44,582 nucleotides of DNA from a virus. The DNA lies in IMG/VR virus record IMGVR_UViG_3300011888_000001, positions 1 to 44,582 of that record. The stretch is one strand, 5' to 3'. How positions within the stretch are numbered: position 1 is the stretch's first letter; every line of letters starts with the position of its first letter. Under the pieces are notes generated by a model that did not search any database, was not told where the DNA came from, and was given only the letters and a program-made list of their open reading frames with translations. Below, one piece after another: positions 88 to 35,510 of this stretch. Made by a program: the position numbers and the translations under genes.

Positions 88-703
88 AGTTCTCGCTGCG
101 TACTCGCACTGCTCCGCCTGGGAGCTTGTAGAGGAACTTCACTCTCAGCATGCCGGCATGGTTGAACGCGTAGACCTCGCCATCAATGATGGATGTGTCG
201 AAGCGGTCGAAACCAATCACAGCGCCGTCCGAGATCAGGCGCTCCATGCTCCTGCCTTTAATGCGCGCGCACGCTGCAGCTGACGGATCTACACCTGCAC
301 TGCGCAGTACGTCACGACCAAACCTAAGCTGACTTCCCGCAATCTCCGTGACCTCGGTCATACCGCCCCCGCCGGCAAATTCCACCTCAGCGTAAAACGG
401 AACCTCGACGTCGTCACTGTTAGCCGGCTCGCTTTCTTCCCAAAGGCCAGCATCGCCGAGCAGTACGGCGTTCGACTCTGCTTTACCAGGGTCTCTAGAT
501 CGCGGCACTTTGCCACTCGTCAGCCATTCGGGATCGCAGTCCAGAACACGCGCGAGTTGCAACAAATTTTTGCCTTTGGCGCCATTCGTCCCCGCCATCC
601 AGAACGTGATGGTGCCGCGGGACACACCGACCCGCTCCGCCACGTCAGTTGGGCGAAGGCCTAGGGCCTGCATTCGAGAGCGCATTCGGTCTTTGAATTC
701 CAT
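1..703 (-). CDS. CI-like prophage repressor, HTH + S24 (LexA-type) autopeptidase; 5' 234 codons, continues across the window junction
   Basis: Missing from the ORF track because it runs off the window start. Minus-strand ATG at 703-701. My translation gives MEFKDRMRSRMQALGLRPTDVAERVGVSRGTITFWMAG (HTH), EVEFAGGGGM (Ala-Gly cleavage-type site), and IKGRSMERLISDG plus VKFLYK (Ser/Lys dyad context of S24 peptidases). Confidence 0.88.
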   Translation of the reverse strand, partial: MEFKDRMRSRMQALGLRPTDVAERVGVSRGTITFWMAGTNGAKGKNLLQLARVLDCDPEWLTSGKVPRSRDPGKAESNAVLLGDAGLWEESEPANSDDVEVPFYAEVEFAGGGGMTEVTEIAGSQLRFGRDVLRSAGVDPSAAACARIKGRSMERLISDGAVIGFDRFDTSIIDGEVYAFNHAGMLRVKFLYKLPGGAVRVRSENSEEYPDETLTHEQFVQDVKVLGRVFWWST

Positions 704-791
704 GGCAGAAGTCTAAGCAAACATTCGTTTAGATACTTGTCTTCCTTCCTTTAGATCTCTAAAATGCAGAGACCAAAGCTGGAGAAAGACC
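704..791. promoter_or_regulatory. Divergent immunity control region (OR-like) with candidate rightward promoter and operators
   Basis: Candidate PR: TTGTCT (737-742), 17 nt, TAAAAT (760-765). The palindrome TTTAGA-tc-TCTAAA (750-763) overlaps the spacer and -10. A second inverted repeat, TCTAAgC-N8-GtTTAGA, lies at 712-733. The region sits between the divergent repressor (ATG 703, minus) and cro-like gene (GTG 792, plus). Confidence 0.6.
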
Positions 792-995
792 GTGACCTAC
801 GATCAAGCACTCGCCTTTTACAAGACCCAATCAGAGCTGGCCAAGGCGCTGCGGCTGAGCCGTGGGCGCGTGACTCAGCTCAAGGACCAGGGTGGCTTCA
901 GCTACCCGACTCAGTGCGTCCTCGAAAAGCACTCGAAGCGCAAGCTCATCGCCCGCTACGAAGACGTCCCCCAGACCAAAATCCAAGCCGCTTAA
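792..995 (+). CDS. Cro-like HTH regulator (67 aa)
   Basis: GTG start with GGAG at 781-784. HTH-like SELAKALRLSRGRVTQL. Divergent from the repressor, which is the classic cI/cro layout. Confidence 0.75.
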   Translation: MTYDQALAFYKTQSELAKALRLSRGRVTQLKDQGGFSYPTQCVLEKHSKRKLIARYEDVPQTKIQAA

Positions 996-1012
996 CCAGG
1001 AGCAGTACCAGC

Positions 1013-1198
1013 ATGTACGCCGACCCCAAGCACATCAGGGATCACATCACCAAGGTTCGCCTGGACGAAGACACCGACGATCTTCTGTCCTCGCTGGCCA
1101 AGTTTCATCGCACACAGAAAGCCGTTCTGGCTCGTGAGCTTCTGGAGGAAGGCTTGAAAAGCCTGCTGAAGGGTAACGAAGAAACCCACGTGGCCTGA
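1013..1198 (+). CDS. Ribbon-helix-helix DNA-binding protein (61 aa), cII-position
   Basis: ATG 1013 with AGGAG at 998-1002. ITKVRLDEDTDDLLSSLAKFHRTQKAVLARELLEEGL fits a strand-helix-helix (Arc/CopG-type) pattern. The 144-aa track ORF 764..1198 extends this frame upstream over cro and is not credible there. Confidence 0.6.
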   Translation: MYADPKHIRDHITKVRLDEDTDDLLSSLAKFHRTQKAVLARELLEEGLKSLLKGNEETHVA

Positions 1199-4294: not shown

Positions 4295-4869
4295 CCCTCC
4301 CAGCAGCCAAGACCCCACGCCCCAAGACCTGCTCAGTCTGCAAGGCCGTGTTCACCCCAGTCCGCAGCCTGCAGAAGGTCTGCGGGCCGAAGTGCGCATC
4401 GATCCACGTCGAGAACCAGAAGCGAAAGCAGCGCAAAGCCATCGAGAAGGTGGAGCGCCGGGAGATCCGTGTGCAGAAGCAGCGCCTGAAGACCCGCGCC
4501 GACCATCTGCGCGAGACCCAGGCCATCTTCAACCAGTGGATTCGCCTCCGCGATGCTGCCGAGCCCTGCATCAGCTGCGGCCGGTACCACGACGGCCAGT
4601 ACCACGCCGGGCACTACCGCACCGTCGCCAGCGCGCCTGAGTTGCGCTTCGAGCCGCTCAACGTGTGGAAGCAGTGCCAGCCCTGCAATAACCACAAGTC
4701 CGGCGACATCGTGAACTACCGGGCCAACCTGGTGAACAAGCTCGGCGCCGCCCAAGTGGATTGGCTGGAAGGTCCCCACGAGCCGAAGAAGTACACCATC
4801 GAAGACCTGCAGGCCATGAAGGCGCACTACCGCGCATTGATCCGGGAAATGAAGCGAGAAGTAGCATGA
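4291..4869 (+). CDS. ninG: NinG/Rap-family recombination endonuclease
   Basis: N-terminal CSVC...CGPKC, a basic coiled segment, and C-terminal CISCG...HAGHY...CQPCNNHKSG are typical of NinG. ATGA coupling to ninB. Confidence 0.8.
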   Translation: MTLPAAKTPRPKTCSVCKAVFTPVRSLQKVCGPKCASIHVENQKRKQRKAIEKVERREIRVQKQRLKTRADHLRETQAIFNQWIRLRDAAEPCISCGRYHDGQYHAGHYRTVASAPELRFEPLNVWKQCQPCNNHKSGDIVNYRANLVNKLGAAQVDWLEGPHEPKKYTIEDLQAMKAHYRALIREMKREVA

Positions 4870-5087
4870 CCCACGACGAGATCCATAACCCCGCGCACTA
4901 CGACCTGTTTCCTGGACAGCAGGCCATCGACGTGATCAAGGCCGCGCTGACGCCTGAAGAGTTCCGCGGCTACTGCAAGGGCAACGCTCTGAAGTATCGC
5001 CTGCGCGCTGGTGAAAAGGGGCCGGCAGAGAAGTGTCTGGCAAAGGCCAACTGGTACCGCGACCGCCTGGTGGAGGATCAAGCATGA
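4866..5087 (+). CDS. DUF3310-family protein (73 aa)
   Basis: In-frame ATG 4866. NPAHYDL...QAIDVIKA...FRGYCKGNALKYRLRAGEKG...KANWY matches the DUF3310 pattern as I recall it. Confidence 0.75.
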   Translation: MTHDEIHNPAHYDLFPGQQAIDVIKAALTPEEFRGYCKGNALKYRLRAGEKGPAEKCLAKANWYRDRLVEDQA

Positions 5088-5683
5088 AGATCAACAGCGC
5101 CCGTCAGGCATGGCACGACGCCTTCTACCAGCCCTGGGACAGCGTCATGAGCTATGCCATCGAGCTGGCAAAGCTCGGCGCCTCAGTGCAGACCACCGAG
5201 AAGCAGCGTCACGCCGGCCAGTGCGTCCACCAGACCCTGTCCGGCCACGTTCAGCGAGCCATCGGCACCTTGCCCGGTTACGCGCAGGCATTCGGCCACC
5301 ACTTGTACAACCCCCTGAGCGACGACGACCACCGTGAATGTGCCGAGGCTGCCGTCTACCTCATGGCCTACAAGGCAGTGACCAAGGAAGCCCGCATGAG
5401 CGCCAAGAAGCAGGAGAAGGCGCTGCATGTGGCTGCCGGGGTTCTCTACCGGTACCGCCGGATGCACCAGGGCGGCGCCAGTGCTTGCGCGGACCCGATG
5501 GCCAAGCCCGAACACTTCCGCGACTGGCTCGTGCTGGAGAAGGGGTGCATGATCTCCAAGGACAACTACGCACGTGAGTGGGAGCCCTTCATCGAGGCCT
5601 GCTTCGCGGCGTGCAACGACATTGATCGGCAGGCGCTGGCACCGGTGGCGCTGTGCATTGGTGAGATGAAGGAGGCGGCTTGA
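5084..5683 (+). CDS. Possible late-gene regulator (Q-like antiterminator), assigned by position only
   Basis: In-frame ATG 5084 (ATGA coupling), 199 aa. It is the last sizeable gene of the nin region, immediately upstream of the candidate late promoter, terminator and lysis genes. No motif securely recognised. Confidence 0.3.
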   Translation: MKINSARQAWHDAFYQPWDSVMSYAIELAKLGASVQTTEKQRHAGQCVHQTLSGHVQRAIGTLPGYAQAFGHHLYNPLSDDDHRECAEAAVYLMAYKAVTKEARMSAKKQEKALHVAAGVLYRYRRMHQGGASACADPMAKPEHFRDWLVLEKGCMISKDNYAREWEPFIEACFAACNDIDRQALAPVALCIGEMKEAA

Positions 5684-5985
5684 TGAAAGATTATGAGCTA
5701 CTAGAGATGGCAGCTAAAGCGGCTGGGCTGCGAATCAGGTGGTTCTATCGGGATGAATACGCAGTCCTTTCTGATGATGTGAGATGGAATCCCCTTACCG
5801 ATGACGGCGACGCGTTCAGGTTGGCCGTTAAGCTCCATATGTCCACAGAGCGCATAGTTGGAAGTAGAGCTGCAGGATGGCTGGCTGATCATAGGATCGA
5901 GCAGTTAGACACAGGTGACCAATGTGAAACACTTCGCCGTGCGATAGTCAGGGCTGCTGCGAAAATCGGTAAATCTATGGAATAG
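5683..5985 (+). CDS. Hypothetical protein, paralogue of 35476..35841 (100 aa)
   Basis: ATG 5683 with GGAGG at 5671-5675. 56/62 C-terminal residues are identical to the minus-strand copy (WNPLTDDGDAFRLAVKLHM...CETLRRAIVRAAAKIG). Its A/T-rich codon choice is unlike its neighbours. Confidence 0.8.
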   Translation: MKDYELLEMAAKAAGLRIRWFYRDEYAVLSDDVRWNPLTDDGDAFRLAVKLHMSTERIVGSRAAGWLADHRIEQLDTGDQCETLRRAIVRAAAKIGKSME

Positions 5986-5992
5986 ATAAGAC

Positions 5993-6021
5993 TTGACGAA
6001 ATGATCGTTTCTGGCGATGAT
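5993..6021 (+). promoter_or_regulatory. Candidate late promoter (PR-prime-like)
   Basis: TTGACG (5993-5998), 17 nt, GATGAT (6016-6021). An intrinsic terminator follows about 35-60 nt downstream, then the tRNA and lysis genes. Confidence 0.35.
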
Positions 6022-6054
6022 TTTCACATGCTGTAAATCAGCACCCAAAAAAGA

Positions 6055-6084
6055 AGCCCTGTCCCCGTGCCGGGGCTTTTCGTT
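6055..6084 (+). terminator. Intrinsic terminator (tR-prime-like)
   Basis: Stem CCCCG (6063-6067) / CGGGG (6071-6075), which can be extended by GCCC/GGGC, followed by CTTTTCGTT. An A-run lies upstream. Confidence 0.6.
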
Positions 6085-6086
6085 AT

Positions 6087-6162
6087 TGGCATGTAGCTCA
6101 GCAGGTAGAGCAGGCGGCTGTTAACCGCCCGGTCGGAGGTTCGAACCCTCCCGTGCCAGCCA
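6087..6162 (+). tRNA. tRNA-Asn (anticodon GTT), 76 nt with encoded CCA
   Basis: Hand-folded cloverleaf: acceptor TGGCATG/CGTGCCA, D arm GCTC-AGCAGGTA-GAGC, anticodon arm GGCGG-CTGTTAA-CCGCC, T arm GGAGG-TTCGAAC-CCTCC, discriminator G, CCA. Confidence 0.9.
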
Positions 6163-6301
6163 AATCATGGGAGTGCGGAGGTAGCTGATCCGCGAGGGCA
6201 AGGCAGCTTCGCTACTGCCGGTGTGGCCACATCGCCCGACCGAGGCAGCACGGTAAAGCCGGAGATCAGCGCCGGCCCCATGATCCATCCAGGAGTAACG
6301 C

Positions 6302-6565
6302 ATGAGCCGGTCCACCTGCTGGAGTCTGCTCGCGTTCTCCCTGGCGCTGGCCTCGTACGTCATGCATCGAGACATCAGCGCCAACGTCTTCCTGGCCACC
6401 ATCTTCATCATTCAGGGCCTCAAAAGGACCGCAGATGACGAGTCGCCAGAACACTGGGACCGTGTGTCCCTCCTTTGCACGTTGCTCAGCGGAGCAGTGA
6501 TCGTATTCGCCCTCTACAGCCTTGCCACCGGCATGCACTGGGCAGGACCAAAGCCGTGGAAGTGA
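6302..6565 (+). CDS. Small membrane protein (87 aa, about 3 TM), lysis-cassette associated
   Basis: AGGAG at 6292-6296. Hydrophobic segments: CWSLLAFSLALASYVM, VFLATIFIIQGL, LLCTLLSGAVIVFALYSLA. Confidence 0.6.
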   Translation: MSRSTCWSLLAFSLALASYVMHRDISANVFLATIFIIQGLKRTADDESPEHWDRVSLLCTLLSGAVIVFALYSLATGMHWAGPKPWK

Positions 6566-6579
6566 GCGAGGCAGAAAAA

Positions 6580-6963
6580 ATGGCAGACGCACTAGCAACA
6601 TCCGCAGCGTCTGCCGCTGTTGCTGCTGGAGGTATCACCGTCGCGAGCTTCATCCCCGGCCTGGATCTGCAGGCAGTGGTGGGTGCTTTCGGCGGTGCAT
6701 GCCTGTTCATCCTGTTCGCCAAGAACATCAGCGTGTTCCAGCGGGTGGGCTACCTCATCTGCGGATGGATCGGTGGCTACTTCGCTGCGGCGGAGTTGAT
6801 GTCTCTGGCCTGGACCAAGACGTCAGGAATTGCGTCTTTCATCGGTGGGTTGCTCTGCGTGACCATCGCCATCAGCCTGATCGAGGCGTTCACCACAGGG
6901 AAGTTTCCAGCCTGGATGATCTCCCTCTGGGAGTGGTTCAGGGGCAAGAGGAATCCCCAATGA
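6580..6963 (+). CDS. Holin-like membrane protein (127 aa)
   Basis: In-frame ATG 6580. Several Gly/Ala-rich TM segments (GITVASFIPGL, GAFGGACLFILFA, YLICGWIGGYFAAA, IASFIGGLLCVTIAISLI). Lies upstream of the endolysin. Confidence 0.6.
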   Translation: MADALATSAASAAVAAGGITVASFIPGLDLQAVVGAFGGACLFILFAKNISVFQRVGYLICGWIGGYFAAAELMSLAWTKTSGIASFIGGLLCVTIAISLIEAFTTGKFPAWMISLWEWFRGKRNPQ

Positions 6964-7292
6964 TCCCGGACGAAGTTGTGGCCCTGCTGCAGGCGACGTT
7001 CTGTGGCGGCATCTTTTTCATGATCGCCTTCCAGTACAACCGCGGCGACTCGCACTACCAGTTCATTCCGAGCCTGTGCGCATTCGGTCTGGCCTCGCTG
7101 TTCGGCCAGCAGTGGCTCAGCATCATCGGGCGGATCCTGTTCTACAACGAGTGGCCCACGGTTTCCGTCTACAACACCCTGATTTTCGGCATCCTCTTCG
7201 TGCTGATCGTACGCTCGAAAGGGAACGTGGCCCGGGTCTTCCGGTTCGAGTCCAACTGGGACGGCCGTGAGCGCCGCCAGGTGACGCGATGA
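6960..7292 (+). CDS. Class-I-type holin candidate (110 aa, 3 TM + charged C-terminus)
   Basis: ATGA coupling. TM segments FCGGIFFMIAF, SLCAFGLASLFG and LIFGILFVLIV, followed by a basic tail RSKGNVARVFRFESNWDGRERRQVTR. Directly precedes and overlaps the endolysin start. Confidence 0.6.
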   Translation: MIPDEVVALLQATFCGGIFFMIAFQYNRGDSHYQFIPSLCAFGLASLFGQQWLSIIGRILFYNEWPTVSVYNTLIFGILFVLIVRSKGNVARVFRFESNWDGRERRQVTR

Positions 7293-7780
7293 GCTTCGAT
7301 CTGGCCTTCACCCGCCTCATGGGCTCCGAGGGTGGTTACAGCAATCATCCGAGCGATCCCGGTGGCGAGACTATGTGGGGCATCACTGCCCGGGTCGCGC
7401 GCGCTAACGGCTATCAGGCCGAGATGCGTAGCCTGACCAAGGAGAAGGCCAAGGAGATCGCCAAGAAGGTGTACTGGGACCCGCTCAAGTGCGACCAGAT
7501 GCCCTTCGCCGTGGCGTTCCAAGTCTTCGATGGCTCGTACAACTCCGGCCCCGACCAGTCCGCCCGCTGGCTCCAGCGCGCCCTGGGTGTGGCAGATGAC
7601 GGCAAGATCGGCCCGATCACTCTCGCCAAGCTCAAGGCTGAAGACCCGGCCCGCATAGCCGCCGAGTACATCAGCCAGCGCGGCCACTTCATGACCAAGC
7701 TTTCCACCTGGTCCACCTTCGGAAAGGGCTGGGCGAATCGCCTGTTCGACAATCTCGGATACCTAGCGGCTGACCTATGA
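7289..7780 (+). CDS. Endolysin, GH108 lysozyme-like domain + PG_binding_3-like C-terminus
   Basis: LMGSEGGYSNHPSDPGGETMWGIT is the GH108 signature. The C-terminal VADDGKIGPITLAKL is peptidoglycan-binding-like. Confidence 0.88.
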   Translation: MSFDLAFTRLMGSEGGYSNHPSDPGGETMWGITARVARANGYQAEMRSLTKEKAKEIAKKVYWDPLKCDQMPFAVAFQVFDGSYNSGPDQSARWLQRALGVADDGKIGPITLAKLKAEDPARIAAEYISQRGHFMTKLSTWSTFGKGWANRLFDNLGYLAADL

Positions 7781-8313
7781 GCGCGCTGCTGCTCGCATGG
7801 CTTCGGGCTCACTGGCTTCCCATAGCCATAGCCGCCATCGCGATCATCAGCCTGATCTGGTACGGCCACGAGAAGGACCAGGCAGGCTATGACCGTGGCG
7901 TCGCTGAGTGGAAAGGCAAGTACGACCAAAAGGCCGCCGACCTGGCAGCCGCCCAGGCCCAGTTCGAGAAAGAGCAGCGCGCCGAAGAGACCCGACGCCA
8001 AGACGCGATCGACCAGGTACGCCGAGATGCCCAAAAGCAGGTACAGCAAGCAAGCGCTGATGCTCGTGACGCTGATGCTGCTGCTAAGCGGCTGCAGCAA
8101 CAAGCCGACCGACTGGCAGCCGCCTACCGTAACTCCAGCAAGAATCCCGGAACTCCCACAGGAGGCCAGGCAGCAGCCTGCCCCGCCGGAGTGCTTGCCG
8201 ACCTGCTCCGCGAATCTGATGCACGCTCGGGAATCCTGGCTGCGCAGGCTGACAGAGCAAGGGACGCCGGCAATACCTGTGAGCGTTCCTACGACTCCCT
8301 GAATAAACGATAA
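7777..8313 (+). CDS. i-spanin (Rz-like)
   Basis: N-terminal TM segment (WLPIAIAAIAIISLIW) followed by a long charged coiled region. Contains an embedded +1-frame lipoprotein gene. Confidence 0.8.
   Translation: MSALLLAWLRAHWLPIAIAAIAIISLIWYGHEKDQAGYDRGVAEWKGKYDQKAADLAAAQAQFEKEQRAEETRRQDAIDQVRRDAQKQVQQASADARDADAAAKRLQQQADRLAAAYRNSSKNPGTPTGGQAAACPAGVLADLLRESDARSGILAAQADRARDAGNTCERSYDSLNKR
8027..8302 (+). CDS. o-spanin (Rz1-like lipoprotein), fully embedded in the i-spanin gene
   Basis: MPKSRYSKQALMLVTLMLLLSGC has lipobox LSGC. The mature part is Pro-rich (PPTVTPARIPELP...PAPPEC). Lies in the internal frame of 7777..8313. Confidence 0.8.
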   Translation: MPKSRYSKQALMLVTLMLLLSGCSNKPTDWQPPTVTPARIPELPQEARQQPAPPECLPTCSANLMHARESWLRRLTEQGTPAIPVSVPTTP

Positions 8314-8361
8314 CCAGGCCCGAGCCGTGTATTCCGGTGCCACCCCTCACCGGAGATCACC

Positions 8362-9456
8362 ATGGCAGTATCTTTGAAGGACCTGCAGGCCACCCTGGAC
8401 ACTGCACAAGCGCAGCTGGCCGAACTGATGGCCGTGCAGCCCAGCAATCCGGGTCAGCCCGAATCAGGGTCTCTTGCGTTCCTTGGCTCGAACATGGGCC
8501 TGATGAACAACAACATCAGCGTGCTGCCTGGCGTGGAAGGCCAGCACTACCGGAAGTGGGTCAAGGAGTTGCTCGCCAAGCGCGTAGCCACCGGAATGCC
8601 ATTCTGCCGCGCACCTATGGGTTGGGAGCGATTCCAGTCGGGCCGCGGCATGCCCTTCGCCAGTTCGGTGAACAAGAAATACGTCGGTGAGTGGCACGAC
8701 AACTACGCCATGGCCGAAGAGGTCGGGCTCCAGGTTGTCCCGGACCTGCACAACTACATGCGCTTCAAGGGTCAGCTGATCAGCAATGACCCGAACAGCA
8801 CTCAGCCCAGCCTGCCGGACTTCTGGGTGAAGTGGTGGAGCGAGTACGGCCAGCACAAATGCTTCTGGGGCCTTGGCCTCATGAACGAGCCGCACGATCT
8901 GCCTGACCAGGTGTTGTTCGACACCATCCAGGCCACGGTCACCGCGCTGCGCAACGCCGGCTGCAAGCTGCCCCTGCTGATCCCTGCCAACAACTGGTGC
9001 TCTGGCTCCACGTACCAGAGCACTGGCGCGTTCATGCTCAAGATCCAAGACCCGCTGAACAACCTGTTCTTCGAGGTACACAACTACCTGATGGAAGGCG
9101 GCATGTACACGGCCAAGTCCGTGACCACCTCCTTCGACAAGGATGCCTTCATCCGCCTGTTCACCCCGGCCTATACCGAGATCCTCAAGGCCGGCAAGCG
9201 CATGTTGATCGGTGAGTTCGCCTGGCCCAAGGGCAACAAGTCCGCAGAGCTCGCAGGCGTCGAGCTGATCAAGTGGGGCTACAGCAAGGGCATCCCGATG
9301 TTCTGGTGGGCTGACGGCTTCGGCTGGCCTGCCAGTGACCTGATCGCGCTCTACAACGACAACGGCAAAGAGACCTACGTCGAGAGCAACAACGTGCGCA
9401 GCCTGCTCGACGTGCTCGAGCCCTGGTTCGCCAAGCGCCTGACCCAATTCATGTAG
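8362..9456 (+). CDS. GH5-like (clan GH-A) glycoside hydrolase, 364 aa, no signal peptide
   Basis: GLGLMNEPHD (NEP acid/base motif), EVHNY, MLIGEFAWP (nucleophile-Glu context). The N-terminal roughly 30 aa look helical (LKDLQATLDTAQAQLAELM). GGAGA RBS at 8351-8355. Confidence 0.7.
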   Translation: MAVSLKDLQATLDTAQAQLAELMAVQPSNPGQPESGSLAFLGSNMGLMNNNISVLPGVEGQHYRKWVKELLAKRVATGMPFCRAPMGWERFQSGRGMPFASSVNKKYVGEWHDNYAMAEEVGLQVVPDLHNYMRFKGQLISNDPNSTQPSLPDFWVKWWSEYGQHKCFWGLGLMNEPHDLPDQVLFDTIQATVTALRNAGCKLPLLIPANNWCSGSTYQSTGAFMLKIQDPLNNLFFEVHNYLMEGGMYTAKSVTTSFDKDAFIRLFTPAYTEILKAGKRMLIGEFAWPKGNKSAELAGVELIKWGYSKGIPMFWWADGFGWPASDLIALYNDNGKETYVESNNVRSLLDVLEPWFAKRLTQFM

Positions 9457-9463
9457 GTGGCCC

Positions 9464-9646
9464 ATGGCTCAGTACAAGATCGCAACCACCAGCGGCATCG
9501 TGACCCTGGAAGCTGCCAGCCATGTGCTGGATAGCTATGGCCTGAAGTTCTACGCGGACCAGAGCATCCTCCTGGCTCACTTCCCCACCTACATCTACAT
9601 GGTCAAGGTCGATGCACTGAAGACCGAAACCGAGAGCGCCGAGTGA
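9464..9646 (+). CDS. Hypothetical small protein (60 aa)
   Basis: Track ORF with ATG start. Coupled (TGATG) to the next small ORF. Confidence 0.5.
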   Translation: MAQYKIATTSGIVTLEAASHVLDSYGLKFYADQSILLAHFPTYIYMVKVDALKTETESAE

Positions 9647-9807
9647 TGGACAAGCAAACCCTCACCTTCCGCGTCACCTTCAATGATGGTGACCAGAAGC
9701 AATACCAGGCTACCGGCGCCGTATGGGACGAAGAGAGCCTGCGCTTCTACGAAGGTGCGGAGCTTGTCGACCTGGCCTTCGGTGCCGTGAAGCTGGAGCT
9801 TGTGTGA
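9646..9807 (+). CDS. Hypothetical small protein (53 aa), not in the ORF track
   Basis: Hand translation: MDKQTLTFRVTFNDGDQKQYQATGAVWDEESLRFYEGAELVDLAFGAVKLELV. TGATG overlaps at both ends (with 9464..9646 and with TerS). Confidence 0.5.
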   Translation: MDKQTLTFRVTFNDGDQKQYQATGAVWDEESLRFYEGAELVDLAFGAVKLELV

Positions 9808-10259
9808 TGGCTGGCGGAAGACCCACCAAGTACACGTCCGAGAATCTGAACATGGTTCGGATGCTGGCCAAGCTTGGTGCAACCAACCAGGAAATGGCTG
9901 AAGCGCTCAACGTCACGCTGTCCACCTTCCACCTGTGGCGTAACACGCACGAAGAGTTTTCGGATGCCATAAAGGTCGGGAAGGATGCTGCAGACGATCG
10001 CGTGGCCGAATCTCTGTATCAGAGAGCCATGGGGTATAGCCATCCTGAGCTGGATATCCGGGTGATCGATGGCGCCATTGTCGAAACCCCGGTGATCAAG
10101 CACTACGCCCCGGACACCACCGCGGCGATCTTCTGGCTGAAGAACCGCCGGCCCCAAGAGTGGCGCGACAAGCAAGAGATCGAACACACCGGAGAGGTCA
10201 GCCTGACCAACCGGATCACTGAGGCCAGAAAGCGTGCCCGTCCCGAAGCTGACAGCTGA
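9807..10259 (+). CDS. Terminase small subunit
   Basis: MAGGRPTKYTSENL...LGATNQEMAEALNVTLSTFHLWRNTHEEFSDAIKVGK...ESLYQRAMGY...PDTTAAIFWLKNRRPQEWRD is a widespread TerS pattern. Confidence 0.9.
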   Translation: MAGGRPTKYTSENLNMVRMLAKLGATNQEMAEALNVTLSTFHLWRNTHEEFSDAIKVGKDAADDRVAESLYQRAMGYSHPELDIRVIDGAIVETPVIKHYAPDTTAAIFWLKNRRPQEWRDKQEIEHTGEVSLTNRITEARKRARPEADS

Positions 10260-11703
10260 TGAGATGCTGGCCGAGGACATGGGCCGGTTCTTCTATGATC
10301 CGCTGGGCTGGGTGCTGTACGCGTTTGACTGGGGTGTAGGTGAGCTTGAGGGCTTCGATGGCCCGGATGACTGGCAGCGCGAGTTCCTAGAGGACTGGGG
10401 CCAGGCGATCAGGGCCAATGACTTCGACGGCATGAAGCCGGTTGAAGCGTACCGGGCAGCCACCAGCTCGGGCCACGGTATCGGGAAGTCTGCGCTGTCT
10501 TCGTGGATCATCCTCTACATCATGAGCACCAGGCCGCAATCCAAGGGTGTTGTGACAGCCAATACCGGCGAGCAGCTGCGCACCAAGACCTGGGGTGAGC
10601 TCGGGAAGTGGAAGAAGCGCTGCATCACCGGTCACTGGTTTGAGTACAACAACGGCAAGGGGAACATGAACCTCTGCCATCCCGACTTCGCCGAGAGCTG
10701 GCGCGTGGATGGCCAGACCTGCCGTGAAGAGAACAGCGAGTCGTTCGCCGGCCTGCACGCTGCGACATCCTCGCCCTGGTACCTGTTCGACGAAGCATCG
10801 GCGGTACCTGACAAGATTTGGGAAGTGGCCGAGGGTGGTCTGACTGACGGCGAGCCGTTCTGGTTCGTCTTCGGCAACCCCACCCGGAACACAGGCCGCT
10901 TCCGAGAGTGCTGGCGCAAGTTCCGCCATCGCTGGAAGACCCGTCAGATCGACAGCCGCCAGGCCAAGATGACGAACAAGGACCTGATCAAGCAGTGGGC
11001 TGCCGACTACGGCGAAGAGTCTGATTTTTTTAAAGTCCGCGTTCGCGGCCTGTTCCCTTCCGCATCGGACTTGCAGTTCATCGGGAGCGATCTGACTGAC
11101 GCTGCGATGGATCGCACGGTGACTGAGGCCATGGTCGCCCATGCGCCCACCATCATCGGCGTGGATCCATCCTGGTCCGGTGAGGACGAGTTCGCGATCT
11201 ACTTGCGCCAGGGCCTGCACAGCAAGCTGATAGGCACCTACCAGAAGAGCGACGACGACGTGCTCATGGCAGGTCGGATCTCGCAGCTGGAGGACCAGTA
11301 CAAGGCAGACGCCGTGTTCGTCGACTTCGGCTATGGCACCGGCATCGTTTCGGCAGGCCGGGCCATGGGGCGCCAGTGGACGCTGGTCCAGTTCGGTGGT
11401 GCATCAACCGATCCGGCGATGCTGAACAAGCGCGGCGAGATCTGGAATGCCATGAAGGAATGGCTCAAGGCCGGCGGTGAGTTGAACGACCGACAGACGG
11501 CCGACGAGATCTGCGCCCCTGAGTACAAGGTGCGCCTGGACGGCAAGATCGTGCTCGAGGCTAAGGATGAGCTGAAGCGCCGGGCAGGCATCAGCCCCAA
11601 CCGCGCCGACGCCCTGGCCCTGACGTTCTCGTTCCCCGTCGTCAAGAAGCACGGCTATGCCACCGGCGGCCATCAATCCAACTACGACCCATTCGGAGCC
11701 TGA
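10234..11703 (+). CDS. Terminase large subunit
   Basis: Walker A-like SSGHGIGKSALSSW. Size and position fit. The start is ambiguous: GTG 10234 or in-frame ATG 10264. Confidence 0.85.
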   Translation: MPVPKLTADEMLAEDMGRFFYDPLGWVLYAFDWGVGELEGFDGPDDWQREFLEDWGQAIRANDFDGMKPVEAYRAATSSGHGIGKSALSSWIILYIMSTRPQSKGVVTANTGEQLRTKTWGELGKWKKRCITGHWFEYNNGKGNMNLCHPDFAESWRVDGQTCREENSESFAGLHAATSSPWYLFDEASAVPDKIWEVAEGGLTDGEPFWFVFGNPTRNTGRFRECWRKFRHRWKTRQIDSRQAKMTNKDLIKQWAADYGEESDFFKVRVRGLFPSASDLQFIGSDLTDAAMDRTVTEAMVAHAPTIIGVDPSWSGEDEFAIYLRQGLHSKLIGTYQKSDDDVLMAGRISQLEDQYKADAVFVDFGYGTGIVSAGRAMGRQWTLVQFGGASTDPAMLNKRGEIWNAMKEWLKAGGELNDRQTADEICAPEYKVRLDGKIVLEAKDELKRRAGISPNRADALALTFSFPVVKKHGYATGGHQSNYDPFGA

Positions 11704-21282: not shown

Positions 21283-23406
21283 ATGCCCAGCGTCCCCCAG
21301 TACAACCGCCAGGTAGGCCTGCAGGGCATCCAGGCGCCGCGCATTCAGGCTGACGTGGCCGATGGGTCTGCCATCGTTCAGGCAGCCAATGACGTCGCCA
21401 ACTCAGCAAATCGGATCTACCAGCAGCAGCGCGAGCAGGCGGACACCACTGCGCTGATAAACGCCGACAACCAGCTGACCACCTGGCAGAACGATGCTCT
21501 GTTCAATCAGCAGTCTGGCGCCTTCACCCTCAAGGGCAAGAACGCGCTCAATGTCACCCAGAACACCCTGACTTCGTTCGACCAGCAGACCCAGCAGATC
21601 ACCCAGTCGCTGAGCAACGACCAGCAGCGCGCGCGCTTCAACCAGATCGCCCAGCGCCGCAAGGATTCGCTGTCCCAGGACCTAAACCGGTACGAGTACC
21701 AGCAGCACCAATCCTACATGGACGACGTGGACAATGCGTCCGTGAAGCTGTCGATCGACTCGGCTGCGCTGAACTTCAACGATCCGAAATCCGTTGGCCA
21801 GTATCGTGACAAGGCCATGGCCGTGATCGATTCCCGCGCCGAGCGCCTTGGCTGGTCGCCGGAAGAAACCCAGCTGCAGAAGCTCAACGCCAGCTCCAAG
21901 CTCCTGACCGGCGTAGTAGGTCGGATGGCTGAGGCCAACCCCAACGCTGCCCAGAAGTACCTGGACGGCGCCCGGGAAGGTATGACCGCTGATGACCAGC
22001 TTCGGGTCGGCAACGCCATTCAGCGCGAGATCAAGCAGCGGGAAATTGAAGCCCGCCAGCTGCAGGCCATCGCTCGGCAGGAGTTGTCCACCCGCGTGCA
22101 GGACGCCCAGGCCGCCTACCTGTCGGGCTTCGACTACGCCAATGCTCCGAGCCGCGGTGAGTTCGTTGCTGCAATGGGTGGTGATAAAGGGAACGAGGCT
22201 TATAACCAGTTCGCCAAAATGCAGGGTGTGGGTACCGCGATTCGTGAGCTCGCCTCGGCCAGTCCTGAAGAGCGCGCCCAGATCCTGGATCGCTACCAGC
22301 CGGCGCCGGGTGGCGTAGCCGGTGAGGGCTTCCGCCAGGACGCCCACATCTACGGCACCCTGCTGAACTCGGCCAGTCGCCTGCTCAAGCAACAGCAGCA
22401 GGACCCGGCGGCCTATGTGTCGCAGTACAGCCCCGCCGTCCAGCAGGCCTACCAGGTGGCAGCGCAAGCGAATACCCCAGAGGCCTGGAATGCCTACGCC
22501 CAGGCTAGCGTGGCCGAGCAGCGCCGGCTGGGTGTTGAGAAGCCCAAGCTGCTGAGCGACGACGCTGCTGCCCAGATCGCCAGTCAGTTCAGCGACACTA
22601 CTGACGGCGGCGACAGTGCCACCAAGCGGATCCAGTCCCTGCAGCAGCAGTGGGGCAAGAACTGGCCGACCGTCTTTTCCCAGCTGCAGGACAAGCTCCC
22701 GGGCGCCGCACTGGTGATTGGCACCGGTGTAGATGTCCAGACCTCGAACCTGCTGGCCCGTGTGGCTCCGCTCAAGACCAGTGAGCTCAAGGAAAGCCTG
22801 CCGGCCGCCGACGCCAAGGATGCCAAAGAGGCCTTGCAAGAGCAGATGGCGCCGTTCCGCACCACCCTGTACAGCCAGGTTGGCGGCGAGCGCACCTTCG
22901 GGACCATCTACGAGCAAGCTGAGCGTCTGGCCTACACTTACATGGGGCAGGGCGTGAAAGCCAAGGATGCCGTCGAGCGCGCCGTGTCATCCCTGGTCAC
23001 CGACAAGTACGAGATCAAGGACACCTACCGGGTGCCCAAGGGTGTTGACGCCGGCGCGGTCGAGCACGGCGCCAACCTAGCCAAGAGCAGCATCAACCTG
23101 GATGACGTGAACTTCGCCATCCCCAAAGGCCTGGATGCCAACTTCGCCAAGGAGCGAGTCAAGGGTGCGCTGGAGCGCGATGGTTACTGGGTCACCACGC
23201 CTGACGAGACAGGCCTGGCCCTGTACTTCGGGGGTGAAGCGGTACTGGACAAGTCTGGCAAGCCGATCACCCGCAGCTTCGACCAACTGGCCGGTGAGGC
23301 CGCGAAGACGCCCGGCATCCTGGACCGTCTGAAGTCCGGCACCTTCAATCGGCCGGCACAGCAGCCGGCTTCCGTTGAACGCTACATGCCCTGGCTGAAC
23401 CAATGA
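21283..23406 (+). CDS. Internal virion/ejection protein (gp15-position, 707 aa)
   Basis: Gln-rich and helical. Size and order match T7 gp15. Confidence 0.55.
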   Translation: MPSVPQYNRQVGLQGIQAPRIQADVADGSAIVQAANDVANSANRIYQQQREQADTTALINADNQLTTWQNDALFNQQSGAFTLKGKNALNVTQNTLTSFDQQTQQITQSLSNDQQRARFNQIAQRRKDSLSQDLNRYEYQQHQSYMDDVDNASVKLSIDSAALNFNDPKSVGQYRDKAMAVIDSRAERLGWSPEETQLQKLNASSKLLTGVVGRMAEANPNAAQKYLDGAREGMTADDQLRVGNAIQREIKQREIEARQLQAIARQELSTRVQDAQAAYLSGFDYANAPSRGEFVAAMGGDKGNEAYNQFAKMQGVGTAIRELASASPEERAQILDRYQPAPGGVAGEGFRQDAHIYGTLLNSASRLLKQQQQDPAAYVSQYSPAVQQAYQVAAQANTPEAWNAYAQASVAEQRRLGVEKPKLLSDDAAAQIASQFSDTTDGGDSATKRIQSLQQQWGKNWPTVFSQLQDKLPGAALVIGTGVDVQTSNLLARVAPLKTSELKESLPAADAKDAKEALQEQMAPFRTTLYSQVGGERTFGTIYEQAERLAYTYMGQGVKAKDAVERAVSSLVTDKYEIKDTYRVPKGVDAGAVEHGANLAKSSINLDDVNFAIPKGLDANFAKERVKGALERDGYWVTTPDETGLALYFGGEAVLDKSGKPITRSFDQLAGEAAKTPGILDRLKSGTFNRPAQQPASVERYMPWLNQ

Positions 23407-28560: not shown

Positions 28561-28585
28561 AACCCCGCCTAGTGCGGGGTTTTTG
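28561..28585 (+). terminator. Intrinsic terminator
   Basis: AACCCCGC-ctagt-GCGGGGTT followed by TTTT. Confidence 0.8.
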
Positions 28586-28604
28586 CATTTCAGGAGCAGT
28601 AACC

Positions 28605-30890: not shown

Positions 30891-30908
30891 TCCAACCAAC
30901 CGAACAAC

Positions 30909-30936
30909 AGCCCTCCCGCCGGAGGGCTTTTTTTTG
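30909..30936 (+). terminator. Intrinsic terminator
   Basis: AGCCCTCC-cgcc-GGAGGGCT followed by eight T. Confidence 0.85.
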
Positions 30937-30952
30937 CCCAAAGGAAAACCCC

Positions 30953-34226: not shown

Positions 34227-34254
34227 GGTGCAAATCGGGTGCACCGACTGCACC
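34227..34254. repeat. GGTGCA repeats, candidate integrase arm sites (P arm)
   Basis: GGTGCA at 34227 and 34238 (11-bp spacing). Inverted TGCACC at 34249. GGTGCACC (34238-34245) is palindromic. Confidence 0.5.
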
Positions 34255-34348
34255 AAACCATGTGGGTGCGTGTTGGGTCAGGCTTGGTTGAAATGAGGAC
34301 CTGGAGCGGGTCCCAGCAGGGGCGCCGCTCTAGATTCGTACCCGAGCG

Positions 34349-34411
34349 ACGGATTCGAAATCCGTTGAGTCAGCAATGGCTCCTAGGGTTCAAATCCCTA
34401 TCTCTCCGCCA
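34349..34411 (+). other. attP core: 3' two-thirds of a tRNA-Ser(CGA) (anticodon arm to CCA), no 5' half
   Basis: Anticodon arm ACGGA-TTCGAAA-TCCGT (anticodon CGA), long variable arm, T arm TAGGG-TTCAAAT-CCCTA, acceptor 3' strand TCTCTCC-G-CCA. The complementary GGAGAGA is absent upstream. Lies directly upstream of the integrase gene. Confidence 0.75.
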
Positions 34412-34420
34412 CAAATCAAG

Positions 34421-34457
34421 GGTCCCAGGGGTTTGCGCCTCTGGGGCCTTTTTCGTT
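34421..34457 (+). terminator. Terminator downstream of the tRNA fragment
   Basis: Imperfect stem GGTCCCAGGGG/CCTCTGGGGCC followed by TTTTTCGTTT. Confidence 0.6.
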
Positions 34458-34469
34458 TCTGGCGTATTT

Positions 34470-34509
34470 GGTGCAATTCTGGTGCAACGGGTGCGCTCGC
34501 TACACCAAA
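34470..34509. repeat. GGTGCA repeats, candidate integrase arm sites (P-prime arm)
   Basis: GGTGCA at 34470 and 34481, GGTGCG at 34490, and inverted TACACCAAA at 34501 (compare TGCACCAAA at 34249). Confidence 0.5.
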
Positions 34510-34532
34510 TTCAGCAAGCTAAACTTGTAGGC

Positions 34533-35510
34533 ATGGCTACCTACATCAAGCGCGGCGACGCATGGCGCGCCCAGATCCGGCGCAAAGGACACCCAGCACT
34601 GTCGGCCACCTTCGACACGAAGGCGGAGGCACAGCGCTGGGCGGCTGAAATCGAAGGCGACATGTCCCGAGCTCGGTTCGTCGATCTCCGGGAAGCCGAG
34701 CAGACCACCCTGGCCGAAGCACTCGAGCGGTACCGCCGCGAAGTGACCCAGGGCAAGAAGGGTCGGCGCCAGGAAGAGATCAGGATCGACCGCCTAGTCG
34801 AGTCCCGCTATGGGGCCATGTCCCTCGCTGCCATCAAGTCATCCACTATGGCCGACTACCGGGATTCCGAACTGAAGCGCGGCGTATCGACGGCAACCGT
34901 CCGTCTGAATCTGGCAATCCTGTCCCACCTTTATACGGTGGCGGTGAAGGACTGGGGTATCCAGGGCCTGGTGAACCCCTGCAAGAACATCCGGATGCCG
35001 AAGGGTAGCAAGCAGCGCGAACGTCGTCCGACGCAGGCTGAACTGGACAGGCTGTACAAGGCCGCCGGCGAGATGAACGCTCAGCTGCCAGTCATCATTG
35101 AGCTGGCTATCGAAACGGCCATGCGCCGCTCCGAGCTGGTCATGCTGCGGAAAGATCAGATACGGGGAAAGGTGGCGTTCCTCGAGGACACGAAGAACGG
35201 CGAGCGCCGGGCGGTACCCCTGTCGAAGCGGGCCCTGGAGCTCTTGGCGGGATTGCCCACGCCGATTGGCGGCGGGCGGTACTTCTCGCTGACTCTGAAT
35301 ACCGTCAGCAACTACTTCCCGAAAGCCTGCGCCGCGGCTGGAGTGGAAGGCTTGCGCCTTCACGATCTCCGGCACGAGGCGACGAGTCGGCTATTCGAGC
35401 GGGGCTTTAACATGATGGAAGTGGCCTCCATCACAGGCCACAAGACCCTTGCGGTCTTGAAAAGATATACCCATCTCAGCCCGCACGACCTTGCTGAGCG
35501 TCTTGGATAG
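34533..35510 (+). CDS. int: Tyrosine integrase (325 aa)
   Basis: ATG 34533 (MATYIKRGDAWRAQIRRKG...). Catalytic-type motifs AMRRSEL, HDLRHE, ITGHK, RYTHL. The track ORF start at 34239 reads through the tRNA fragment and is rejected. Confidence 0.92.
   Translation: MATYIKRGDAWRAQIRRKGHPALSATFDTKAEAQRWAAEIEGDMSRARFVDLREAEQTTLAEALERYRREVTQGKKGRRQEEIRIDRLVESRYGAMSLAAIKSSTMADYRDSELKRGVSTATVRLNLAILSHLYTVAVKDWGIQGLVNPCKNIRMPKGSKQRERRPTQAELDRLYKAAGEMNAQLPVIIELAIETAMRRSELVMLRKDQIRGKVAFLEDTKNGERRAVPLSKRALELLAGLPTPIGGGRYFSLTLNTVSNYFPKACAAAGVEGLRLHDLRHEATSRLFERGFNMMEVASITGHKTLAVLKRYTHLSPHDLAERLG

Follow-up and report, generated by a model that had tools for sequence, protein, structure and literature searches.

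The 44,582-nucleotide (nt) stretch analysed here (the window; positions 1 to 44,582 of IMG/VR virus record IMGVR_UViG_3300011888_000001) is a complete temperate Pseudomonas-type podovirus genome, and at positions 8362 to 9456 it encodes a glycoside hydrolase of family 5 (GH5). We found this compact enzyme, with an intact catalytic set and no export signals, between the lysis cassette and the terminase genes, and related enzymes at the same kind of place in unrelated phages. At roughly even odds –a probability of about 0.5– we suggest that it is a late-made, Sec-independent glucanase that would be freed at lysis to degrade an (acetylated) cellulose-like host matrix, with its N-terminal helix oligomerising the enzyme and a hairpin ahead of the gene lowering its translation. 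A sequence-only reading of the same DNA had listed a soluble matrix depolymerase released at lysis among its options, and this would also be the best explanation here.

At the level of sequence and fold, the family assignment proved straightforward. The Pfam profile PF00150 (Cellulase) matched with an E value of 8.2e-24 and 85 bits (cut-off 23.5), aligning residues 56-317 to profile positions 11-267 of 272, and a PDB sequence search matched GH5 endoglucanases with E down to 3e-25. The hallmarks of GH5 and clan GH-A that the sequence-only reading had pointed out are all there and in order: LMNEPH at amino acids (aa) 173-178, HNY at 240-242, and IGEFA at 283-287. An extra HNY at 130-132 contains the conserved GH5 His. 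The catalytic acid/base is E176 (nt 8887-8889) and the nucleophile E285 (nt 9214-9216). In an alignment of the six-member phage clade, the eight GH5 signature residues (R83, H130, N175, E176, H240, Y242, E285, and W316) are invariant, and E176/Y242/E285 align with E135/Y201/E245 of RBcel1. The AlphaFold2 (AF2) model, with a predicted local distance difference test score (pLDDT) of 73 and a predicted template modelling score (pTM) of 0.77, alternates strands and helices in a (beta/alpha)8 barrel. Its top 50 Foldseek matches were all GH5 endoglucanases (E down to 2.7e-20, target-normalised template modelling scores of 0.66-0.80).

The best matches by both structure and sequence were RBcel1 and Ps_Cel5A (Foldseek E ~3e-20, template modelling scores of 0.7-0.8), followed by fungal endo-1,4-beta-glucanases and Xanthomonas cellulases. 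RBcel1 and Ps_Cel5A are GH5_5 endo-1,4-beta-glucanases; in a bacterium that builds cellulose biofilms, Ps_Cel5A is proposed to take the place of BcsZ (PMC8900817). RBcel1 (PDB 4EE9, 7P6J) and P. stutzeri Cel5A (4LX4, 6R2J) have the same fold, the same catalytic pair, and the same Tyr (Y242/Y201) as the phage enzyme, together with a Pseudomonas background and a proposed link to bacterial cellulose. However, the phage protein is only 23-29% identical to the characterised GH5_5 enzymes, lacks a signal peptide, has a coiled-coil-like helix and then a Pro-rich linker at its N-terminus, and stems from a gene next to the lysis genes. We thus predict a catalytically intact, retaining GH5 endo-beta-glycanase that is, by its nearest structures only, most like the GH5_5 endo-beta-1,4-glucanases.

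The protein has no transmembrane (TM) segment and no signal peptide, as the sequence-only reading had supposed: the Kyte-Doolittle mean over 19 residues peaks at 0.92, and a hydrophobic core is absent from the N-terminus. The proposed absence of a fibre-like adaptor also held, since no tail or adaptor PHROG or Pfam family matched, nor did any lysis PHROG or peptidoglycan-hydrolase Pfam family. The protein is nameless in NCBIfam, PHROGs, and the cluster look-up. Upstream of it lies a complete canonical lysis set of two holins, a GH108 endolysin, Rz, and Rz1, whose gene calls are corroborated in a second locus of the same type (L004). The GH5 has only its position in common with holins, endolysins, and spanins, and it had rightly been placed outside the canonical set.

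The gene appears to be in working order. Its codon usage resembles that of the late genes and is among the best adapted in the phage (G+C at third codon positions, 0.86). Against a 96% identical orthologue (L001), 46 of its codons differ synonymously and 13 non-synonymously. It is codon-adapted and, judging from these counts, under purifying selection. A recent foreign acquisition was rejected because the capsid and portal genes are no better adapted in codon usage. A consensus scan of positions 5500-10500, covering the sigma-70 type only, found neither a promoter from 6021 to 10500 nor a plus-strand terminator 3' of the gene. The simplest reading is thus that the gene belongs to the late transcript.

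For the insertion site, related phages without the enzyme are informative. Phage HB2107-3I has the order Rz, 76-aa open reading frame (ORF), terminase small subunit (TerS), and FBPa19 has lysis-region genes, a 76-aa ORF, and packaging genes; neither carries GH5. The 60-aa ORF that follows GH5 in the window is homologous to the 76-aa ORF of HB2107-3I (E 2e-10), and tblastn matched it in FBPa19, FBPa42, and YA3. Since its homologue stands before TerS in relatives without GH5, the 60-aa ORF belongs to the phage backbone and not to the GH5 unit. This refines the earlier view of two tiny uncharacterised ORFs of 60 and 53 aa between GH5 and TerS. Both exist, and the junctions ORF60/ORF53 and ORF53/TerS are TGATG overlaps; the 60-aa ORF starts 7 nt past the GH5 stop, with an AGGTGG Shine-Dalgarno sequence in front. 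From this gene-order comparison, the GH5 cassette is an insertion between Rz/Rz1 and the small backbone ORF upstream of TerS. It resembles a moron in lying between genes that are adjacent in relatives, but differs from one in that the scan showed no promoter or terminator of its own. In the 96% identical relative L001, an HNH_3 endonuclease gene (654-1187, minus strand) lies between Rz and an intact GH5 leader.

The inserted unit begins with a 45-nt leader. Compared with the cassette of L002, which sits in a different phage backbone, the window shows homology with an abrupt onset at 8317 and an end at the GH5 stop codon, so the leader travels with the gene; L001 has it as well. A scan with the leader pattern found the same leader 5' of other helix-GH5 genes in four IMG/VR and eight metagenome loci. 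Eight of the 16 metagenome matches were discarded as chance, having no Shine-Dalgarno sequence or ATG. The leader is present once in the window, matched no Rfam family, and was not found by a pattern search of 185,579 species genomes. The hairpin that the sequence-only reading had noticed in front of the ribosome-binding site is present in the sequence and forms part of this conserved leader, although the coordinates given, 8333-8352, need a shift of one or two bases. The Shine-Dalgarno sequence GGAGA (8352-8356) begins within the 3' arm of the hairpin, the predicted fold is only modestly better than that of shuffled sequences (z = -1.8), and 92.9% of hairpin cells pair across 14 leaders, with loops of 7 to 9 nt. 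The hairpin is a candidate RNA structure compatible with all 14 leaders. Its reading as a terminator was rejected for lack of a T-run behind it. Two further candidates in the leader, a sigma-54 promoter and an RsmA/CsrA-type GGA site, were also dropped, as neither consensus fits when checked by eye.

The short N-terminal helix described earlier turned out to be a conserved module rather than an incidental feature. AF2 places a helix at residues 5-24 and a low-pLDDT linker at 22-39. In all members of the GH5 clade, a helix with a heptad pattern comes first and a linker rich in Pro, Thr, and Glu second, and longer forms add one or two beta domains. For one such long form, protein P0004, the AF2 model was too poor to name its two beta domains (pLDDT 62, pTM 0.48). 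The window protein and that of L019 are 53% identical over their first 30 aa, whereas their catalytic domains are only 25% identical. Similar helices were seen in a BPP-1-like podovirus and in two other phages, one with structural genes of the E217/Pa193 type and one with Terminase_2/HNH packaging genes. Their presence in phages with unrelated structural or packaging genes argues against a virion-specific anchor. From the model and the heptads, the helix is a probable coiled-coil or oligomerisation module. In the second, leader-bearing GH5 lineage, complete copies have 495-550 aa and match PF00150 at E ~1e-21. Two leader-GH5 copies are decayed: L017 (minus strand, leader 2364-2386) is frameshifted after 55 codons, and L029 (572-880) has an internal deletion that leaves an 87-aa remnant with ~39 N-terminal and 38 C-terminal residues. 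The GH5 gene is thus accessory and dispensable.

To place the enzyme among its relatives, we ran an exhaustive phmmer search against the representatives of 1.84 billion 50%-identity clusters. We retrieved 1,782 GH5 relatives, but only six representatives at E<=1e-30. Wherever gene context could be retrieved, this close clade lies in phage-like contigs, on at least five backbones, and none of its proteins has a name in any source looked up. A tblastn search of 50,697 phage records at 1e-5 gave a single weak match (27% identity), and a protein-pattern search found no relative in IMG/VR or in the 185,579 species genomes.

The position between holin- or spanin-like genes and the terminase recurs in unrelated phages. 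The window-type 364-aa GH5 is found in BPP-1/Ab31-like podoviruses (L004, L005, and L001 with its HNH gene inserted upstream). L002 and L003 encode a 376-aa enzyme with 65% identity in a phage with Terminase_3, Mu_F, and E217/Pa193-type structural genes, in the order hol-like gene, phrog_6065, holin, gp49_66, GH5, two small ORFs, TerS. In L018/L019, holin-like and TM proteins precede the leader and GH5, followed by two small ORFs, HNH, and TerS, and in L031 a phrog_2658 hol-like gene and phrog_6065 precede the leader and GH5. Other members are placed differently. The GH5 of an 87-kb myovirus (635 aa, L009-L012) stands immediately 5' of the terminase large subunit (TerL) gene, and a more distant 717-aa form (L015, E 1.1e-45) occupies the same place in the same lineage. 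T4-like phages carry forms of 633-651 aa (L007, L008), and L014, L038, and L039 carry forms of 384-399 aa beside a prophage integrase.

Two side observations concern these contexts. The pair of phrog_2658 ('hol-like') and phrog_6065 lies 5' of GH5 in two differing contexts (L002 334-1034; L031 2374-3049, minus strand), and no canonical endolysin is visible between the pair and GH5 in the stretches at hand. In the T4-like phages (L007 8100-10190, L008 9900-12050), a conserved CTAAATA, like a T4 late promoter, lies ~75 nt upstream of GH5 and a strong hairpin with a T-run just 3' of it, among SegE-like, acetyltransferase, and denV-like genes; there, GH5 looks like a unit of its own.

At the end of its tail module, the window encodes a 494-aa candidate SGNH/GDSL-type esterase, which we consider a probable functional partner of GH5. 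Its start is uncertain (the TTG at 32739 overlaps the gene before it). A protein encoded directly 5' of GH5 in the 87-kb myovirus L009 is 40% identical to it (E 2e-94), and the stretches GDSIQEG, SGNDV, and DGVHPN are aligned in both; we take these stretches to fit the usual SGNH sequence blocks. The esterase is also 45% identical to the C-terminal part of Orf77 of phage POR1, whose N-terminus is collagen-like, and its identities to the homologues in L009, POR1, ZRG1, ZQG1, and PSTNGR1 all lie between 40% and 45%. Only four of the 50,697 phage records hold close esterase homologues (POR1, the Providencia phage PSTNGR1, ZRG1, and ZQG1), and only four hold GH5 genes of the broad group (POR1, ZRG1, ZQG1, and one uncultured phage). 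Three of the four esterase-bearing records therefore also carry GH5, with a hypergeometric p of 7e-13 when relatedness is ignored (the three phages are of different types). A GDSL-like gene stands immediately 5' of GH5 in L038 and L039 too.

The cultured phages with both genes infect Stutzerimonas stutzeri and Pseudomonas oryzihabitans. Stutzerimonas stutzeri is described as a cellulose-biofilm former (PMC8900817), and the Pseudomonas oryzihabitans group carries cellulose gene clusters (PMC7926942). More broadly, environmental, plant-associated pseudomonads make cellulose (PMC7926942), and Pseudomonas syringae pv. tomato DC3000 makes acetylated cellulose (PMC10083355). An esterase together with a glucanase is, we infer, what an acetylated beta-glucan would require.

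On this basis, we suggest the following course of events. The GH5 gene would be transcribed together with the late lysis and packaging genes, and its translation would probably be damped by the hairpin over its Shine-Dalgarno sequence. Because it has no export signal, the protein would build up in the cytoplasm and reach its substrate only once holin, endolysin, and spanins open the cell. Outside, it would cut a beta-1,4-glucan-type host exopolysaccharide, most plausibly (acetylated) bacterial cellulose, and the SGNH-type esterase of the phage would remove acetyl groups alongside it. Cleavage of the matrix would free the progeny and expose neighbouring cells. The N-terminal heptad helix would most likely oligomerise the enzyme for multivalent binding, rather than dock it to the virion.

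The closest functional precedent is Bacillus phage phiNIT1, whose PghP and LevP (a levanase) are non-structural matrix-degrading enzymes, PghP being made late and released at burst (PMC6966330). The proposed logic is the same, but the phiNIT1 enzymes are unrelated in fold and substrate, come from a phage of a Gram-positive host, and are not associated with a holin-endolysin-spanin cluster, and their role is backed by experiment whereas that of the window GH5 is deduced.

Several points weigh against our proposal. With only 23-29% identity to GH5_5 enzymes, the substrate is not established. The host is placed only as Pseudomonas-type, from the relatives of the phage, and its cellulose production is an assumption. 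The SGNH assignment rests on motifs and sub-threshold Pfam scores (Lipase_GDSL_2, full-length, E 0.0048). For the hairpin, the 14 leaders held no compensatory change and one pair is broken in seven of them, so we keep it as a candidate structure. Finally, some relatives look virion-associated. The GH5 genes of L009 and POR1 adjoin tail-fibre-like genes, and protein P0155 and the GH5 proteins of ZRG1 and ZQG1 carry long N-terminal coiled coils. In the 87-kb myovirus, proteins P0006 and P0154 are ~95% identical over their N-terminal 190 aa and only 31% in their catalytic domains, a pattern of kept N-terminus and apparently swapped catalytic domain as in receptor-binding proteins.

These last points favor the main alternative, which we regard as doubtful for the window, namely a virion-attached depolymerase: the N-terminal coiled coil would dock or trimerise GH5 on the capsid or tail, and the particle would digest matrix on entry. 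The GH5 gene does adjoin the packaging and structural operon. In L009 (6865-11908) and L015 (4862-10154), a cluster encodes a tail-fibre-repeat/collagen-like protein, a beta-propeller protein, an SGNH-like esterase, and GH5. POR1 (L040 1-8206), which shares the SGNH partner with the window phage, has counterparts of all four, with a few small ORFs parting GH5 from the other three. Moreover, GH5 tail appendages are known from N4-like phages: gp095 of Erwinia phage S6 is a GH5 verified as a carboxymethylcellulase, cellulose is the first receptor of S6, and the gp095 gene lies in the region with the proposed tail-spike gene of N4 (PMC9544554). The enzymes of N4-like and other lytic phages (S6 gp095, phiEaP8, Skulduggery, SopranoGao, and POR1 Orf70) match the window GH5 at the fold level. 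However, these are multi-domain proteins of 700-930 aa, 13-16% identical in structural alignments and undetected by tblastn at 1e-5, and none of them is encoded in a lysis cassette.

The Stutzerimonas stutzeri phages ZRG1 (4422-6173, L036) and ZQG1 (4410-6167, L037), which also have the SGNH homologue, encode proteins of 583-585 aa in which an Ala-rich coiled coil of ~180 aa precedes GH5. Their catalytic domains are undetected by the window protein at 1e-5 and 24-27% identical to the second, L019-type lineage, and their gene positions are unlike that in the window; in ZQG1, GH5 lies immediately 5' of the portal gene. The genome papers of both phages mention neither a cellulase nor a depolymerase.

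In the window protein, by contrast, the helix has only 24 aa, and its N-terminus has no similarity or motif in common with the structural proteins of the phage. The phage has a tail fibre with a T7-type adaptor plus a second spike of its own, and the tail-fibre genes (28572-32758) lie ~19 kb downstream of GH5. The same leader and similar helices also occur in phages whose structural or packaging genes are unrelated. The 24-aa helix could still mediate an undetected virion attachment.

A second alternative keeps the release at lysis that we propose and changes the substrate, which could be an exopolysaccharide with mannose or glucose (Psl-like), a beta-glucan other than cellulose, or a surface polysaccharide with O-acetyl groups. 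The specificities within GH5 are many –the GH5 of a permafrost soil virus was shown to be an endomannanase, as cited in 10.1101/2024.12.20.629349–, the low identity to GH5_5 enzymes leaves room for others, one relative (P0153) has a weak GH5_mannosidase Pfam match, and the esterase partner indicates only that the polymer is probably acylated. Nevertheless, the top neighbours in sequence and structure are endo-beta-1,4-glucanases without exception, and the cultured phages with GH5 and SGNH infect a reported cellulose-biofilm former or a host that groups with carriers of cellulose clusters. We therefore hold a non-cellulose substrate to be unlikely.

Viral and prophage glycoside hydrolase genes are commonly read as carbon-cycling auxiliary metabolic genes (AMGs) (PMC13507307; 10.1101/2024.12.20.629349). 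In a soil-virome survey, all 123 viral cellulase-associated annotations fell in CAZy families without a documented lysis or virion role (10.1101/2024.12.20.629349). These genes include GH5 on environmental viral contigs, as here, and are read as host carbon metabolism. For the window, that would mean plant cellulose degradation for the host or its kin, or a BcsZ-like remodelling of host cellulose, in keeping with the proposed action of the near enzyme Ps_Cel5A in cellulose biosynthesis and with the typical cargo position of L014, L038, and L039 at a prophage end by the integrase. The sequence-only reading had likewise entertained a lysogenic-conversion enzyme. We find both versions very unlikely. 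With no signal peptide or TM segment, the enzyme has no route to an extracellular polymer from an intact cell, and hence a living lysogen would have no access to cellulose. Unlike the soil-virome genes, the window GH5 family lies one gene from a spanin; no sigma-70-type promoter or terminator flanks the gene in the scan, and it is embedded in the late operon by the spanins. Clade members with known context are all in phage-like contigs, and the host surface is indicated by the co-occurring esterase type, which in POR1 is joined to an N-terminus of collagen-like, tail-fibre type.

The weakest alternative, an effector that cuts an envelope-spanning or reinforcing glycan or the peptidoglycan beta-1,4 backbone from within and is needed for efficient lysis, could draw on GH5 standing directly beside holins or spanins in several backbones and on the visible parts of L002, L018/L019, and L031, which show no canonical endolysin between holin-like genes and GH5, but it is highly improbable given the holin, GH108 endolysin, and Rz/Rz1 set of the window phage, the frameshifted and deleted GH5 copies, and the shortness of the examined loci, in which an endolysin may lie elsewhere. 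To our knowledge, no GH5 acts on peptidoglycan.

Regarding novelty, phage GH5 enzymes and soluble phage depolymerases are both already known, so the window GH5 is not a new kind of system. What appears to be undescribed is a compact GH5 wired into a lysis cassette, its recurrence there in several unrelated backbones, a leader-plus-helix module common to divergent GH5 catalytic domains, and the pairing with an SGNH-type esterase. Phage depolymerases are usually seen as tail spikes, and soil viral cellulase-family genes as carbon-cycling auxiliary genes. The window GH5 points to a third arrangement: a small, export-signal-free GH5 in the lysis cassette, paired with an esterase across lineages. 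If our proposal is true, it offers a case, open to test, in which phages take apart bacterial (acetylated) cellulose biofilms from inside at burst, as well as compact ~36 kDa enzymes for dispersing Pseudomonas-type cellulose matrices. It would also call for caution before viral GH5 genes are assigned to host metabolism without a check of their neighbours. As a tentative extension, which is possible though we would not bet on it, matrix clearance may be a built-in fifth lysis step in many phages of environmental pseudomonads, delivered by a portable module of a conserved leader, whose hairpin would mask the Shine-Dalgarno sequence, and a coiled-coil N-terminal helix with various grafted GH5 domains, and completed by a virion-borne SGNH deacetylase acting on acetylated cellulose. 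In that case, part of the soil viral 'cellulase AMGs' would be a core phage escape-and-entry function.

Table 1. Positions of the GH5 cassette, its parts, and neighbouring or partner genes in the window
Feature	Position	Strand	Basis or remark
GH5 glycoside hydrolase, 364 aa, ATG start	8362..9456	+	Pfam, PDB matches, AF2, Foldseek
Conserved leader of the GH5 cassette, 45 nt, GGCCCGAGCCGTGTATTCCGGTG-loop-CACCGGAGATCACC	8317..8361	+	Homology to cassettes of other phages begins here
Hairpin TCCGGTG / 8-nt loop / CACCGGA	arms 8333-8339, 8348-8354	+	Folding; candidate translational brake
N-terminal amphipathic helix of GH5, aa 1-24, heptad a/d pattern	8362..8433	+	AF2, heptad analysis
Short Pro-rich linker of GH5, aa 25-41	8434-8484	+	AF2 low confidence
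Canonical lysis cassette	6556..8313	+	Adjoins the GH5 leader on its 5' side
Holin	6556-6963	+	Pfam Phage_holin_8; PHROG holin
Second holin	6960-7292	+	Lysis cassette
GH108 endolysin	7289-7780	+	Pfam Glyco_hydro_108 and PG_binding_3; PHROG endolysin
i-spanin Rz	7777-8313	+	Pfam DUF2514; PHROG Rz-like spanin
Embedded o-spanin Rz1	8027-8302	+	phrog_11621, E 4.5e-24; lipobox LLSGC
60-aa ORF	9464..9646	+	phrog_14106, E 2e-9; small backbone gene of Ab31-like Pseudomonas podoviruses
53-aa ORF (ATG; 54 aa from GTG at 9643)	9646..9807	+	Coupled on both sides; in L001, L004, L005
Terminase small subunit TerS	9807-10259	+	phrog_309, E 5.5e-57
Terminase large subunit TerL	10234-11703	+	phrog_2 / phrog_5902
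Candidate SGNH/GDSL-type esterase, 494 aa	32739..34223	+	Pfam, motifs, homologues; end of tail module
Integrase	34239..35510		

For the rest of the genome (G+C ~61%), BPP-1/Ab31-type genes encode the portal, capsid, and nozzle, and the terminase has 78-79% nucleotide identity to Ab31-like phages. The 53-aa ORF matched nothing in phage records, PHROGs, Pfam, or NCBIfam, and a homologue search suggests that it is confined to this phage lineage; it differs from its L001 counterpart by four synonymous changes and one non-synonymous change. A faint pattern is common to the 60-aa and 53-aa ORFs (…A..V.D…L.FY), and a duplication is possible, with a score reached by ~5% of shuffles. Tandem paralogy was not retained as a candidate, since Smith-Waterman alignment with shuffles was marginal (p ~0.05) and BLASTP found nothing.

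The only promoter-like site in the scan (5993-6021) lies ahead of a tRNA-Asn (6087-6162) and the lysis genes, with a terminator-like hairpin (6063-6075) between the site and the tRNA. The arrangement at 5993-6162 resembles a late promoter/terminator pair under antitermination control. FBPa19 has tRNA-Asn and tRNA-Thr at the equivalent place.

Further downstream, the first ~230 residues of a 707-aa protein (21283-23406) match an endolysin PHROG, so this protein probably belongs inside the virion and carries a cell-wall-lytic domain. Finally, the N-terminus of a 601-aa protein (30953-32758), encoded 3' of the T7-type tail fibre, weakly resembles tail-fibre and exopolysaccharide-depolymerase PHROGs, which suggests a second receptor-binding protein.

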